64,000 bases of DNA from Promethearchaeati archaeon SRVP18_Atabeyarchaeia-1 (GTDB taxonomy: Archaea; Asgardarchaeota; Atabeyarchaeia; Atabeyarchaeales; Atabeyarchaeaceae), in contig CP147779.1 of the NCBI GenBank assembly GCA_037308085.1, positions 1,760,001 to 1,824,000 of the forward strand, given 5' to 3'. The notes under the pieces were generated by a model. It was not told the DNA's origin. It did not search any database and saw only the letters and a program-made list of their open reading frames with translations. Made by a program: the position numbers and the translations under genes. Below are positions 47,020 to 55,720 of this stretch, piece by piece (position 1 is the stretch's first letter; each line of letters begins with the position of its first letter).

Positions 47020-48039
47020 TCAGAATGTTGAGAAACCAATTCGCATCTGGTCCATAATTGCCCCCTTTTGCTCCTGAAGTATTCTATCAACATTCTCGCG
47101 AGTAACTGCTTTCGTTGTGCCGACGTCCGTCACACAGGCAGCCCCAGCGGCCTGCCCTTCAAGCAGGAGGTCCAGCAACTCCTTTCTGGTCAGAGCGGCT
47201 ACGTCGATCTTTCCCAGTTTGTCCGCTTTCCTAGTCAGGTAGAAAACTACCCCTGCAGAGAATGCGGCTCCAGCACCCATCGGATCAACGACAGGAACCT
47301 TGAAAGCCGGCATGGCGACCCTATCATAGGCGTGCTTGGCGACCAACCCCTCATTGCCCAAGGTGATTATCGGGAGTTTTACCCCTCGATTGGCGATGGC
47401 GTTGAGTGCTTCAGTTGACTTGTGCTTACCTGTCATGCTTTCCGCTTCTGTACCGTTACAGTGCAGCACATCAATCCATTCAGAGGCTCGTGCAAGGAAC
47501 TCCCACCCATGTCCCTGCGGCTGGATTGGGTCAACGACGGTCACACAGTCGAGTTCCTCCTTGACCTCCCTTAGGATCCGAGGAAGCTGCTCGTCAAACA
47601 GTCCGAGGGATCCAGTTGCACCAATGTAGAATACGCAGGGTCTCTCCCTTCTCAGCAAATCTCTCACTTTGAGTGGCTCAAGGAGCGTGTTTGCCCCAAT
47701 ATCGAAATGAAATTTGCGGGCTTCACCTTCGGCGGATATTGTCGTGGCTGACCCAGTCGGAGTCTTCTCGACCTTCTCCACGTGTGTGACCACGCCATTC
47801 TTCTCCAATTCCTTGATGATGAAATCGCCGAGATCGTCCTGTCCCACTGCACCCGAGCAGCTGACTTCACCTTTTGCCAGACCCAACTTCAGCAGGTCAA
47901 TTGAGACGTTGGCCGCATGCCCGCCAGCAGAAAACCTTTCTCCAGACAGCGCGGATGTTGCCTCCCCTGGGGCAGCGGCTTCGAGCTGACCGCTAGCAGT
48001 AATGTCGACAACCAGCATACCCGTACAGGTAACGAGCAA
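47020..48039 (-). CDS. PfkB/ribokinase-family carbohydrate kinase with the catalytic Asp replaced by Ala
   Basis: GGHAANV, GAVGQDDLG, N.TEA, ITLG..G, VVDPMGAGAAF (canonical D..GAGD). Confidence 0.85.
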   Translation of the reverse strand: MLVTCTGMLVVDITASGQLEAAAPGEATSALSGERFSAGGHAANVSIDLLKLGLAKGEVSCSGAVGQDDLGDFIIKELEKNGVVTHVEKVEKTPTGSATTISAEGEARKFHFDIGANTLLEPLKVRDLLRRERPCVFYIGATGSLGLFDEQLPRILREVKEELDCVTVVDPIQPQGHGWEFLARASEWIDVLHCNGTEAESMTGKHKSTEALNAIANRGVKLPIITLGNEGLVAKHAYDRVAMPAFKVPVVDPMGAGAAFSAGVVFYLTRKADKLGKIDVAALTRKELLDLLLEGQAAGAACVTDVGTTKAVTRENVDRILQEQKGAIMDQMRIGFSTF

Positions 48040-48114
48040 AATGGATAGTACTCCTCTGCAGCTCGTGCTTCTGAAATGAGATATGGTCTCATGATATTTG
48101 AAAGGATGGTACGG

Positions 48115-48246
48115 GGTTCTGTTAACTCTTGGGGTGATGAGTTAACTGGGTAGCATCGACTCCGAGGATTACCTGTTCCTTCCGCTCCTCAGGGTTCCCC
48201 TTCACCGCTTCACCTGCCGCTCCCTTCAGGCTGAACCGCAGCCCTG
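48115..48246 (-). ncRNA. Putative omega/reRNA scaffold overlapping the tnpB 3' end
   Basis: Non-conserved protein tail after RuvC-III; hairpins GGCTG/CAGCC (48229-48243) and GTTAACTC-N10-GAGTTAAC (48121-48146); position inferred from known TnpB loci, boundaries uncertain. Confidence 0.55.
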
Positions 48247-49288
48247 CGCCGACGATATTCAGAGCCCCATTCTCATCCCTGTCCACGAGCCTCCTGCAGC
48301 GTGGGCAGTAGACCTTCCTCCCTGCGCATTCGACTATCTTGGAGCCACATATCGCGCAGATTGAGGAAGTCTTGGATGGATTAACGTAAAATACTGGGAT
48401 ACCATCCCAGCGTGCCTTGTACTCTATTTGCCGCTGCAGCTCGGCGTAGCTCCAGCTGTTCATCCTTGCCCTGTAGTCCTTGCCCTGCCAGTTTCCCTTC
48501 CTGTAGAGTTTGCGGATGCCTCTGATGTCCTCCATGACTATGCCGAACTGCCTTTCCTTCGCCTCCTTCACTATGCTTGCTGAAGTGTTGTGCAGTATCC
48601 AGTTTACCTTGCTCCTCTGGATTCTTCCGTATTTGGAGTAGAGCTGCTTCCTGACGCGGCAATCGCTTCTTCTGAGGCCTCGCTTCGCCTGCCTACAGTT
48701 CTCCTTGATCTCGGTCGCCCTCGACAGGTCATACCTCCTCATATCTCCAGCCGAGGATGCAGTGGTTACATTGTCGAGGTTGCGGTCTACCCCGACTAGC
48801 CCCACAGGCTCAACCTGAGCAACCTCCTTCGTGAAGGCCAGTGACACGGCGGAGGCGGTCAAGCAGACTGAACGCACAGCACACCCCTCAACAGACTGCA
48901 GCGAGTAGGCGTTCAGCGGGAGGTAAACGTACTCTCTTGCCCTGATGGGCAGCCTGAGCTTGCCCTTGATTATCCTGAAGCCGTAGCAGTCGGTGAGCAT
49001 GAGCCTTGTTGCGCAGGGCTTCTTCACCCCCTCCCGCTTCCTCAGCGCCTGCCTGTAGTTTCGGAGGATGCCCGCGGCCTTGCTGATCGCGGTTAAGCGG
49101 TAGTAGGCTGGCACATCAAATCCTGCGAGTTGATGGTATGCCTTCTTTGAGAGCGCCTTCATCGAGGTGACATTCTCAGCTACACCAATCCTTAAGCAAT
49201 CGTTCACCATCTTTCTGAACGCATCCAAAAGGTTGAGTAGCTCTGGAGACGGCGTATAGTTCTGCTTCACCGCTTTGACCGCTTGCAT
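48122..49288 (-). CDS. tnpB: TnpB RNA-guided endonuclease (388 aa from ATG 49288)
   Basis: RuvC-I VGVDRN, RuvC-II IVMEDI, zinc finger CAIC..CPRC, RuvC-III DRDENGALNI; TTTATTA TATA box ~24 nt before the ATG (probably leaderless); stop codon lies inside the TIR. Confidence 0.96.
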   Translation of the reverse strand: MQAVKAVKQNYTPSPELLNLLDAFRKMVNDCLRIGVAENVTSMKALSKKAYHQLAGFDVPAYYRLTAISKAAGILRNYRQALRKREGVKKPCATRLMLTDCYGFRIIKGKLRLPIRAREYVYLPLNAYSLQSVEGCAVRSVCLTASAVSLAFTKEVAQVEPVGLVGVDRNLDNVTTASSAGDMRRYDLSRATEIKENCRQAKRGLRRSDCRVRKQLYSKYGRIQRSKVNWILHNTSASIVKEAKERQFGIVMEDIRGIRKLYRKGNWQGKDYRARMNSWSYAELQRQIEYKARWDGIPVFYVNPSKTSSICAICGSKIVECAGRKVYCPRCRRLVDRDENGALNIVGAGLRFSLKGAAGEAVKGNPEERKEQVILGVDATQLTHHPKS

Positions 49289-49390
49289 ACCCGAAAATGG
49301 GGTACTTCGGCTAATAAAGCCACCATACGGCCGAGAAGCCTCCAACTCCAACTTTCACCCGAAGAGTTAACAGAGCTTGGTTCGGCAAGA

Positions 49391-49441
49391 TTTAAATACG
49401 AGGACTCGTAATTTACACGCGAGAATACGACTACTCGTAAT
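49391..49441 (+). promoter_or_regulatory. TATA box plus tandem palindromic operator upstream of dtxR-feo
   Basis: TTTAAATA at 49391-49398; AATACGAGGACTCGTAAT (49395-49412) and AATACGACTACTCGTAAT (49424-49441). Confidence 0.7.
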
Positions 49442-49478
49442 ATTCCAGGACGTGGATCTTCCCAAAACTTGGAAAGAG

Positions 49479-50258
49479 ATGGTGAAGTTGGCCGAAGGGC
49501 AGGTTACTGATGTGGTTGAGGAATACCTAGAGACAATCTACAGGCTCCAAATGAGGGAAGGTGACGGGGCTAAGACAAATGACATCGTCAGAACAATGAA
49601 GGTCGTTCCAGGAACCGTCACAAATACGGTGGAGCGACTGGAGAAAGAAGGCTTTGTAGAACACGAGCCCTATAAAGGCGTTAAGCTGACAGAGAAAGGA
49701 CGCAAGATCGCGCTGCAAGTCGTCAGAAGGCATCGCCTATCCGAGAGACTGCTCACAGACATTCTCCACGTTAACTGGGGGAAGGCTCACGATATAGCAT
49801 GCAAGATTGAACATGACATCGCTGACGAGGAGGTCATGGAAAGGATTGAGGAGGCATTGGGTAATCCTAAGACGTGCCCTCATGGAAATCCTATCCCCTC
49901 TGAAGACGGAGAGTCCACAGATGACGAATCCAGTGTGAAACGGTCTAGGTCTCTCTGGGATCTTCAAGTCTCAGACTTGGGCGTCATAACGAACATCGCT
50001 GACGAAGATAGCGAGGTTCTGAGGTACCTTTCTGATTTCGGGCTGATGCCTGGCATGAACGTGGAAGTGATCAAGAAAGATCCCGCGGAACACACTATGA
50101 TTGTGCGGCTGGCTGGCTCCGCCATGCACACGATTACCGAAAAGGTGGCTTCATCCATCCGCGTCAGAGGGGCAGAGCGACTCAATAGAGCCGATATTCT
50201 GAACCGCCGCACTCACTCTGTCGGCAAAGGATCGACGTTTGGTGAATACGAAAGCTGA
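49479..50258 (+). CDS. DtxR/MntR-family metal-dependent repressor with FeoA-like C-terminal domain
   Basis: EEYLETIY, RRHRLSERLL, ACKIEH, CPHGNPIP. Confidence 0.95.
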   Translation: MVKLAEGQVTDVVEEYLETIYRLQMREGDGAKTNDIVRTMKVVPGTVTNTVERLEKEGFVEHEPYKGVKLTEKGRKIALQVVRRHRLSERLLTDILHVNWGKAHDIACKIEHDIADEEVMERIEEALGNPKTCPHGNPIPSEDGESTDDESSVKRSRSLWDLQVSDLGVITNIADEDSEVLRYLSDFGLMPGMNVEVIKKDPAEHTMIVRLAGSAMHTITEKVASSIRVRGAERLNRADILNRRTHSVGKGSTFGEYES

Positions 50259-53728: not shown

Positions 53729-55096
53729 TCATGTCTCTTTAGCTACTCTTTTTCCCCCGTGCTCTTTTTCCAGCTGCTTGAAATTGAAGTCTACTTTGAC
53801 ATGTTGTAGTGCTAGTGCTCCCATTAGAAGGAATATCGCCAGAACTGGCCCGAATGCTCGATATCCTGTGTTTCCTGGGAAGGCCACGTTCCAAGTTAGA
53901 ATGCCAGATATGAAGAAGCCTAGAGCTTGGAATAGATTCAAAGGAATGGAGTTGAAACCCATATAGATGCCCGCTCGCGCTTCGCCAGTCTTTATTTCAT
54001 CTTCGTGAGCTATGTCTGACATGATCACGTAGGGGAAGATCATGTATCCAGACATGTTGAATGCAACTAATGCGACGTATATGAACCCCTGCCAGAACAG
54101 CGGTATCGGTACGCCTGGCCATCCGATTAGCAAGGAAAATGGTAGAACCGCAGTCAGGAACAGCATTGCGAAGGTGAAACTACTTTTCCTGCCAACTTTC
54201 CTGATAACCAGCATCCAGATGAGAAAACTAAGGATTACGACAACGATGAATACGGCGCCGAATATGATGTAGTCTATCGTCGTTGAAAAGTTCAAGACAT
54301 ACTGAACAAAACCTAGCACCATGCTCTGAATAGAGATGAATGCGACGGACAATAATCCTTGGCAGACGATCCATGCCAGGTAGTTCTTGTTGGCAGTTAT
54401 GACTCTGAACTCGCGTCTAATGGATGGTGTCTTGATTTGCTTCTCATGCGATTCTAGGAGCTTCAATATCGAGGGGATGTAGAAGACGATCTGTACCATG
54501 GAAGCTATGAACATTATCTCAAGGATTAAGCCCCAGCTACCGGCTTTTATCAGGCTCGGAAATGTGAATGCAATTAGTATTCCGATCGCAGTTCCAATCA
54601 TGTTTGTCGTATTCAGGATTGTCGATAATCGGACTCTCTCTTCTGGCTCGGTTAACTCTGGCATCCAGCTCTGATATGGTGTACTGATCCATCCGTACCA
54701 GAAGTTCACCATGCAAACTGCGATTGTCATGTATAAGAACAGAGGTATCTGGTAAGAGCCTGCATTAGCATCAGGTACCATCGCGGATGTGGGCAAGAAG
54801 TAGGTTGGCGAGAATAGTAGAATCATGGAAAGTGCGAGAAATGGTATTCCAGTGATAACGAAAGGTTTTCTTCTCCCATATCGGGTGCCTTTCAATCTGT
54901 CACTTAGAGCGCCGGCCGCAAACTGTGATATCATTATCGTTATTTTGCTGAGAGCTAAGGCGATTCCGGCATACAAGCCAATTAGCACAAGCGGGTTTGC
55001 TTCATAGAAGTTCAATGGAGCGAATTCGACTAGTCGCAGGGCAATCTGAGCACCCAGCGGTCCAATGCCATACCACAACTTATGACTTGCCTTCAT
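53729..55096 (-). CDS. MFS transporter, GPH/MelB-like
   Basis: GALSDR...GRRKPF, PYQSWMPEL, SDI...E..TGE.RAG.Y.G. Confidence 0.9.
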   Translation of the reverse strand: MKASHKLWYGIGPLGAQIALRLVEFAPLNFYEANPLVLIGLYAGIALALSKITIMISQFAAGALSDRLKGTRYGRRKPFVITGIPFLALSMILLFSPTYFLPTSAMVPDANAGSYQIPLFLYMTIAVCMVNFWYGWISTPYQSWMPELTEPEERVRLSTILNTTNMIGTAIGILIAFTFPSLIKAGSWGLILEIMFIASMVQIVFYIPSILKLLESHEKQIKTPSIRREFRVITANKNYLAWIVCQGLLSVAFISIQSMVLGFVQYVLNFSTTIDYIIFGAVFIVVVILSFLIWMLVIRKVGRKSSFTFAMLFLTAVLPFSLLIGWPGVPIPLFWQGFIYVALVAFNMSGYMIFPYVIMSDIAHEDEIKTGEARAGIYMGFNSIPLNLFQALGFFISGILTWNVAFPGNTGYRAFGPVLAIFLLMGALALQHVKVDFNFKQLEKEHGGKRVAKET

Positions 55097-55720
55097 GAAG
55101 AGTCTTTATTTGCGGTATCTGTATTTAAATAGGTTGTGTCCTAGAGCCTTGCCCGATAAGTAAGTCGGTAGATTACAGAGTATTAGCCAGGGATCTGGGC
55201 GCTTCTGACTGCAAAATGAAAGGCAGAACAAAGGCATTGTGAGGTGCACTGCTCTCACACTGTCCTGTTTTGAGAAAAGATTGTGCTTTCCACGTGCATA
55301 TGTGCACTCGTGCAAAGCTCTCCCTCGTTATCGCGTCTCTCAAAGACTACATGGTAAGCCTGGTAGTTGCACTCTGGCCTAGTCGCCAGCAAACAAGGGG
55401 TGAAGGCTGGACAATATCGCTTCCAGTTAAAAGTTAACATTATCGTTGGCAAACAACAAAAGCTATTTATCCCGTCTTCAATCGCTCAATTAGTGGACGC
55501 AAGCCTGATGATCGCGTATGTTTTGCAGCATTTGCAGAGAAGATGAGATCGCACATAGGTTGTTGTTCCCTTTAGTATTGTTCCGATTCCCATTTCGCAT
55601 TGGAAAGGCTAATAGATTCGAAGCCATGAAAAGTGATGAGGCATGCGCAAGGTCGCGCTTGAGAGTGGTTGTATCCATGATAACCAGCAGCATTCGGTTT
55701 GAGATTGGAACAGTCATGGG

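Follow-up and report, generated by a model that had tools for sequence, protein, structure and literature searches.

The analysed window is a stretch of 64,000 nucleotides; coordinates refer to it unless they are marked as genome positions. On its minus strand it holds a transposon unit of 1263 bp (48115-49377) with tnpB as sole gene. The tnpB frame runs from an ATG at 49288 to a TAA stop (reverse complement of 48122-48124), i.e., the left end in tnpB orientation carries the higher coordinates. The encoded 388-aa protein matches Pfam PF07282 (Cas12f1-like_TNB, 4.4e-19) as well as the NCBIfam model guided_TnpB (118.4 bits, cut-off 100), and its PDB sequence matches are TnpB and Cas12f chains. 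The RuvC residues D168 (within GVDRN), E253 (MED) and D336-R-D338 (DRDEN, 336-340) as well as the zinc finger cysteines C311/C314/C328/C331 are all present and conserved in clade A, which is the element's own TnpB family. All features of the locus are listed in Table 1.

Table 1. Features of the tnpB transposon unit and its flanks, in tnpB orientation from left to right (window coordinates).
Feature	Position	Strand	Basis and remarks
Candidate TAM TTG	49386..49388	-	directly 5' of left-hand TSD copy; clade comparison
Left-hand TSD copy CCGAACCA	49378..49385	-	7/8 identical to 48107-48114
Left end (LE) TIR, IS6 type	49355..49377	-	inverted repeat and copy alignment; outermost AGC differs from GGT
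TATA-like box TTTATTA	49312..49318	-	about 27 nt before tnpB ATG; putative promoter, read from sequence
tnpB	48122..49288	-	388 aa; RuvC residues and CxxC...CxxC zinc finger intact
OmegaRNA scaffold	48115..48266	-	overlaps tnpB 3' end, stops at element boundary; covariance model R1, 147 bits
Terminal hairpin	48121..48146	-	3' arm 48121-48128 and most of loop within TIR; holds stop codon
Right end (RE) TIR	48115..48137	-	tip ...ACAGAACC exact in 12/13 RE copies, remaining one ACGGAACC
Right-hand TSD copy CCGTACCA	48107..48114	-	first 8 nt of predicted guide
Predicted 20-nt guide template CCGTACCATCCTTTCAAATA	48095..48114	-	unique in genome at 16 and 20 nt; transcription putative

The terminal inverted repeats (TIRs) at 48118-48137 and 49355-49374 are 20 nt long and 95% complementary. 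Alignment with three further copies from the genome (85-87% DNA identity; one with an internal deletion) sets the limits of the unit to 48115 and 49377, and stretched to these limits the TIRs are 23 nt long. The flanking 8-mers CCGTACCA and CCGAACCA (tnpB strand) are 7/8 identical, while the sister copies c2 and c3 show perfect 8-bp duplications (ATAGCATT and TGGAGCTC). The left flank before the duplication ends with ...ATCTTG and the right flank (tnpB strand) starts with CCGTACCATCCTTTCAAATA. Furthermore, 48121-48128 and 48139-48146 form a hairpin of 8 bp, GTTAACTC-N10-GAGTTAAC. Since the limits are fixed by the copies, since the duplications of c2 and c3 are perfect and since the hairpin pairing is kept by compensatory changes (see below), the TIR, hairpin and duplication features exceed chance. 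The stop codon lies inside the right TIR and this TIR is part of the hairpin, such that stop codon, transposon end and hairpin arm use the same bases. An earlier sequence-only reading of the locus had pointed to this overlap of protein code, transposon end and probable RNA stem. Its coordinates are correct, and the compensatory changes now add weight to the stem.

Both ends vary to a different degree among copies. At the left end, the three outermost nt (49375-49377) are found as AGC, CAC, CGC, GGC, TGT and others, sometimes also with altered length, and the next 20 nt are conserved. The right tip ...AGAACC, on the other hand, is nearly constant, with rare ...AGAACT or ...AGAACG in other phyla. 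The constant right tip versus the varying left tip suggests ongoing selection on the RNA 3' end and a left tip that is decaying or altered.

IS6 family members are marked by 15-20-bp inverted repeats with GG tips and cTGTt as well as by 8-bp target repeats (PMC7986276). The right end GGTTCTGTTAAC... shows these end features and the left end is alike except for its three outermost nt. The 8-bp target repeat, which has the one mismatch here, is perfect in c2, c3, the right-end copy r9 and many elements of other genomes. A genome-wide scan for the terminal sequence identifies about 25 units bounded by this TIR type, namely units with clade A tnpB (including the one at 48115-49377), units with tnpB of a second clade B (36-41% protein identity), mini-elements of about 255 bp and two longer elements (6.5 kb and 4.4 kb). 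Each of these two encodes a DDE_Tnp_IS240 transposase (8e-18), so that a cognate IS6 DDE transposase within matching ends exists in the same genome. Here, the TIR variant of clade A resembles that of the 6.5-kb element and the variant of clade B that of the 4.4-kb element. The 6.5-kb element features a perfect 8-bp duplication and an intact 383-aa transposase with an N-terminal zinc finger, which scores 120.7 bits over the whole NCBIfam profile transpos_IS6, just below the equivalog cut-off of 125. The nearest relatives, Ca. Atabeyarchaeum deiterrae (Asgard) and a 'Promethearchaeati' MAG, carry clade A tnpB and one such transposase each. Among five other MAGs with such TnpB elements, an IS6 transposase is detected in one, a count that is weak evidence given the fragmentation of these MAGs.

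Based on the IS6-type ends, the duplication and the matching transposase elsewhere in the genome, the sequence identifies the unit as a non-autonomous IS6-type transposon with tnpB as cargo, which is presumably mobilised in trans by the 383-aa IS6 transposase. We also considered membership in IS200/IS605 or IS607 and rejected it given the 20-23-nt TIR, the 8-bp duplication and a left end without hairpin. The three Y1 transposase genes of the genome adjoin other TnpB families.

To describe the RNA, we built an alignment from the terminal 150 nt of ten right ends: three from coding copies, six from non-coding mini-elements and one from r5, a tnpB 3' remnant. Its consensus structure comprises 31 pairs, of which 9 show compensatory double changes. 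On this structure 98% of the cells are paired compared to 24-45% when partners are slid, and 0/500 shuffles reach the observed values. Within the terminal hairpin (helix 8), 5/9 pairs are changed on both sides, e.g., GTTACCTC/GAGGTAAC and GTCGAGTC/GACTTGAC, and covariation is also observed in one long-range stem and one inner stem. The single-sequence folding energy of the scaffold is ordinary (z 0.54), such that it is solely the covariation that argues for the structure. The scaffold covers about 150 nt and its structure halts 6 nt (AGAACC) short of the boundary, with the TIR as 3' arm of the last stem. This agrees with the sequence-only reading, which had the scaffold end in the TIR. That is, we find what characterises OMEGA systems: a structured omegaRNA that overlaps the tnpB 3' end and ends at the element boundary.

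When applied to the genome, the covariance model reports 25 right ends with E <= 0.01, located at mapped right-end boundaries, and one match from outside the training set reaches 155 bits. No full scaffold is found by the model in the two transposase-bearing elements of the genome, and an Rfam scan of 47900-49500 matched no family. The loop GGTT(C) could form a pseudoknot with the 3' tip (G)AACC, but this is unproven, since both sides are invariant; in a distant clade with a GTACC end the loop is GGTC, which does not compensate for the change.

The mini-elements have a length of about 255-269 bp and account for seven RE copies (r6-r12), six of them with a matching left end; examples are found at genome positions 868840-869096, 1260433-1260701 and 537694-537951. 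Their layout is a left TIR directly followed by a TTTATAT box, a spacer of about 90 nt, the scaffold and the right TIR. Most of them show an 8-bp duplication that is preceded by TTG. The mini-elements thus look like mobile omegaRNA genes that would need both TnpB and transposase in trans. For their TTTATAT box, as for the TTTATTA box upstream of tnpB, we infer a promoter function from the letters only.

A guide that begins at the element boundary has the duplication as its first 8 nt, and the TAM must then sit just 5' of the left-hand copy. We therefore studied the bases at this position. Within the genome, TTG is found exactly 5' of the left-hand TSD copy for the 48115-49377 copy, c2, c3, r6, r7, r9 and six solo left ends. 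Exceptions from this geometry are six more ends with TTG offset at N7 or N9 and one mini-element without TTG. In the two nearest relatives, TTG precedes three insertions with perfect duplication and ATG one, while the clade B copy shows TTA. As a wider set, we used 80 relatives from Bathyarchaeia and Nitrososphaerota (37-60% identity). Half of them (40/80) reside in elements of 1.2-1.36 kb with GGTTCTGT...ACAGAACC-type ends (at least 13/20 TIR positions matching), and for 21 of these 40 elements the duplication matches at 7 or 8 of 8 positions.

For the tally we considered a duplication as good if at least 7/8 positions match, which results in 36 elements over three archaeal phyla. The left triplet of clade A (n=10) is TTG in 9 cases and ATG in one. 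Clade B (n=9) shows TTA five times, followed by TCA, TAC, TTC and CTA. For the other phyla (n=17), we observe TTG (6), ATG (4), ATA (3), TTA (2), TAT (1) and TTT (1). Given a genome background of 1.9%, the 9/10 TTG of clade A correspond to a binomial p-value of 4e-15. The generalised motif W-T-R (genome background 5.7%) is present on 30/36 left sides versus 8/36 right mirror positions (Fisher's test, p 3e-7). The motif tracks the TnpB clade, i.e., TTG in the Asgard clade A and mostly TTA in clade B. Mapped onto the TnpB tree, the triplet changes 15 times compared to a mean of 18.6 for shuffled triplets, with 0/200 shuffles as low.

These counts bear on several claims of the sequence-only reading. 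Its guide and empty-site sequences are correct, and its proposal that the guide starts with the TSD and that the empty site has its TAM 5' of the TSD, with a guide boundary predicted from sequence, is supported: when the bases 5' of the TSD are compared across copies, TTG recurs there and on the left side only. Its candidate TAM CTTG has to be shortened. Position -4 varies (C, T or A) and only TTG is conserved, which leaves TTG in place of CTTG as the motif. Likewise, the TSD mismatch it emphasised is present in the 48115-49377 copy (position 4) but is no general feature, as many copies have perfect TSDs. Single mismatches are located at positions 4-6 in 11/15 one-mismatch elements, the 48115-49377 copy included; the tally was done post hoc (binomial p about 0.005), and the cluster may be due to chance or tied to the seed at the left junction.

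Taken as a whole, the observations are probably best explained by the 3' end of an IS6-type transposon that provides a guide starting with the TSD, combined with TnpB homing into empty alleles in which TTG precedes the target. Transcription through the right end would produce an omegaRNA whose guide consists of the 8-nt duplication and the flank beyond; where this transcript begins and ends and where the guide starts are predictions, and a look-up of public sequencing runs listed none that contains the locus as RNA. In the empty allele, the full 20-mer directly follows TTG, such that TnpB would cut there, and repair from the occupied copy would insert the element into the cut allele. The occupied allele offers only the TAM and 8 matching nt at its left junction and would thus be spared. 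ISDra2 TnpB requires a match longer than 8 nt, for which reason the occupied allele is expected to escape cleavage. The partial self-target at the left junction (TAM plus 8 nt) would follow directly from this geometry.

Since IS6 transposases show no such target preference (see below), TTG-N8 most likely reflects a filter acting after insertion. That is, only TAM-adjacent insertions would be driven to fixation and kept, and such a filter could operate within a cell that has several chromosome copies or from cell to cell; that homing takes place between chromosome copies is an assumption of ours. Movement of IS6 elements is regarded as replicative, via cointegrates and without excision (PMC7986276), so the benefit of TnpB would differ from the IS605-type restoration after excision. 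Going one step further, an RNA-guided nuclease may decide which IS6-type insertions persist, including the omegaRNA-only mini-elements of about 255 bp, and a replicative transposon that does not excise may need TnpB homing to become fixed. We put this generalisation forward tentatively and consider it slightly doubtful. If true, it is a role unlike the 'repair after excision' shown for IS605 and IS607.

The pattern could be unrelated to TnpB if TTG-N8 were a target preference of the IS6-type transposase. This can be assessed with transposase-bearing elements as control, since the same IS6 transposase type is common in Nitrososphaeria (97/251 genomes). For 11 of their elements with perfect duplications and good TIRs, W-T-R is found on 1/22 sides, which is the background level. 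Including the genome's two transposase elements, 2/26 sides show the motif versus 30/36 omegaRNA-bearing elements (p 2e-9); note that these controls are mostly from Nitrososphaeria. The two exceptions are what speaks for a transposase preference: one of the genome's own two IS6 elements has TTA 5' of the duplication on one side, and one Nitrososphaeria element has TTG. The motif is, however, single-sided despite near-identical TIRs, shifts with the TnpB clade and is rare at transposase-bearing IS6 elements, which makes a transposase preference very improbable. The motif therefore goes with the TnpB/omegaRNA module and its orientation and not with the transposase. Such a link would also arise if TnpB, via TAM recognition, helped to choose the IS6 target, be it guide-independent or loosely guided, as a primitive analogue of CRISPR-associated transposons, with TTG-N8 set at insertion and not by a filter. 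The very precise spacing between TTG and left end fits such a recruitment, as does a one-sided motif that is specific to TnpB/omegaRNA elements; the mini-elements without tnpB show the motif as well and would need TnpB in trans. We nevertheless judge recruitment unlikely, since TnpB is not known to interact with an IS6 transposase, the transposase gene is distant from the elements, and a filter after insertion yields the same pattern with known activities. Moreover, different copies have unrelated flanks, so the donor guide does not pick the target; for the same reason we rejected insertion directed by the donor guide.

Two further readings keep the TnpB-omegaRNA complex but change what it binds or where the guide starts. 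The complex might target the occupied allele, i.e., bind TAM and 8-nt seed without cutting and thereby regulate promoter or transposition, with no homing involved. TTG and 8 matching nt are indeed guaranteed beside the left end, about 60 nt upstream of the TATA-like box, and the (post hoc) excess of TSD mismatches at positions 4-6 (11/15) would fit too. Yet the nuclease residues are intact, perfect duplications are kept in many copies, stable TnpB binding on an 8-nt match is not established, and the intact scaffold tip of old copies is explained no better than by homing, so that we regard a purely regulatory role as quite improbable. Alternatively, the duplication could be part of scaffold or TAM with a guide that begins only after it, given that the Fanzor1 TAM has been interpreted to include the 5' TSD, and the scaffold the 3' TSD (PMC13565253). 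This is barely credible here: the duplication differs at every insertion, which rules it out as a fixed TAM and as part of the scaffold, the conserved motif is found upstream of it, and conservation among copies ends exactly at ...AGAACC.

We also compared the element with known systems. As in IS200/IS605 TnpB elements (ISDra2, IS608 and the solo-tnpB 'IS1341'), the RuvC D-E-D and zinc finger are intact, the omegaRNA overlaps the tnpB 3' end up to the right boundary, and the TAM is on the left of the insertion site; a guide taken from the flank and a module aimed at the empty site are shared features that we predict. In contrast, IS200/IS605 elements use a Y1 transposase (IS607: serine) and their TAM abuts the left end, and neither they nor IS607 have TIRs or TSDs (PMC13565253, PMC4810608). 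The element described here has IS6-type TIRs, an 8-bp duplication between TAM and left end, a presumed DDE enzyme in trans, and a left junction that repeats the first 8 nt of the predicted guide.

TnpB has been linked to DDE transposases before. Altae-Tran et al. 2023 describe, in the main text, six DDE-associated TnpB branches with inverted repeats, including solo tnpB copies within the ends of transposase-bearing elements (PMC10691335), and the DDE families named with TnpB are IS630, ISL2 and IS1031 (PMC10691335, main text; PMC13565253). These branches resemble our element, as TnpB lies within inverted repeats and the tnpB 3' end is within 250 bp of the transposon end, whereas the relation of TAM, duplication and guide, omegaRNA-only mini-elements and the contrast to transposase-only elements are not part of the main text's description (PMC10691335). 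The IS6 family is not named in that main text on DDE-associated TnpB (PMC10691335). A literature search for a link between TnpB and the IS6 family found no paper.

Fanzor1 of eukaryotic and viral DDE transposons is alike in being a TnpB homologue within a TIR/TSD transposon, where the TSD is accommodated in the TAM/guide geometry. There, the TAM includes a short sequence-specific TSD and the scaffold contains the 3' TSD (PMC13565253), while our element has an arbitrary TSD of 8 bp with the TAM upstream, and the TSD would be the guide seed. With IS6/IS26 and respective MITEs it shares 15-20-bp inverted repeats, GG tips, cTGTt, 8-bp repeats and the IS240-type DDE domain, as well as the archaeal clade with N-terminal zinc finger (PMC7986276). 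Known IS6 members carry the transposase only, with one passenger gene and two MITEs recorded family-wide (PMC7986276), whereas the ends studied here enclose tnpB and omegaRNA, or omegaRNA alone, without transposase. We thus read the locus as a TnpB/omegaRNA module adapted to IS6-type ends, with its TAM apparently displaced by the duplication.

Several consequences would follow. For this widespread archaeal class, pipelines that predict the TAM from the bases next to the left end would go wrong, since they would read the variable duplication while the motif is 8 nt farther out. In our hypothesis, a DDE family whose members supposedly do not excise (IS6) is tied to an RNA-guided nuclease, and each omegaRNA-only mini-element would be a guide-RNA gene with a mobility of its own. 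The motif frequency of 83% for omegaRNA elements versus about 5% for transposase-only IS6 elements provides a natural experiment on whether TnpB drives fixation. Hosts include Asgard archaea, Bathyarchaeia and ammonia-oxidising Nitrososphaeria.

At the host locus, pfkB and DtxR genes are adjacent in both relatives, with no element in between. A nucleotide-exact empty allele is not found in these two relatives, as the pfkB-DtxR spacer is too diverged to be aligned at the target. Metagenome contigs were also pattern-scanned for the reconstructed empty sites of the 48115-49377 copy and of c3, which gave no match. Between the insertion and the gene of the DtxR/FeoA-type regulator, about 10 nt from the insertion, we observe an 18-nt box with internal palindrome in two copies (49395-49412, AATACGAGGACTCGTAAT; 49424-49441, AATACGACTACTCGTAAT) that has an operator-like look.

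Some further observations concern the inventory of related elements. Genome-wide, at least 25 TnpB-like loci of several families compare to only three Y1 (IS200-type) genes, two of which are recorded in this count as adjoining other TnpB families. The 6.5-kb IS6-type transposon (genome 549276-555829, L022:477-7030; perfect duplication TGGAGAAC) holds the genome's only intact IS6 transposase and, as cargo, a 995-aa Eco57I/MmeI-like type IIG restriction-modification enzyme; few IS6 members carry passenger genes. Clade B tnpB, e.g., at genome positions 54083-55237 (L035:1501-2655), has DRHVN as RuvC-III motif compared to DRDEN in clade A, which may be a catalytic-site variant. Finally, the Nitrososphaeria loci L144, L146 and L161 show IS6 elements head to tail, spaced by the same 8 bp as found in their flanks (...AGAACC-N8-GGTTCT...), as expected for IS26-like targeted or cointegrate transposition.
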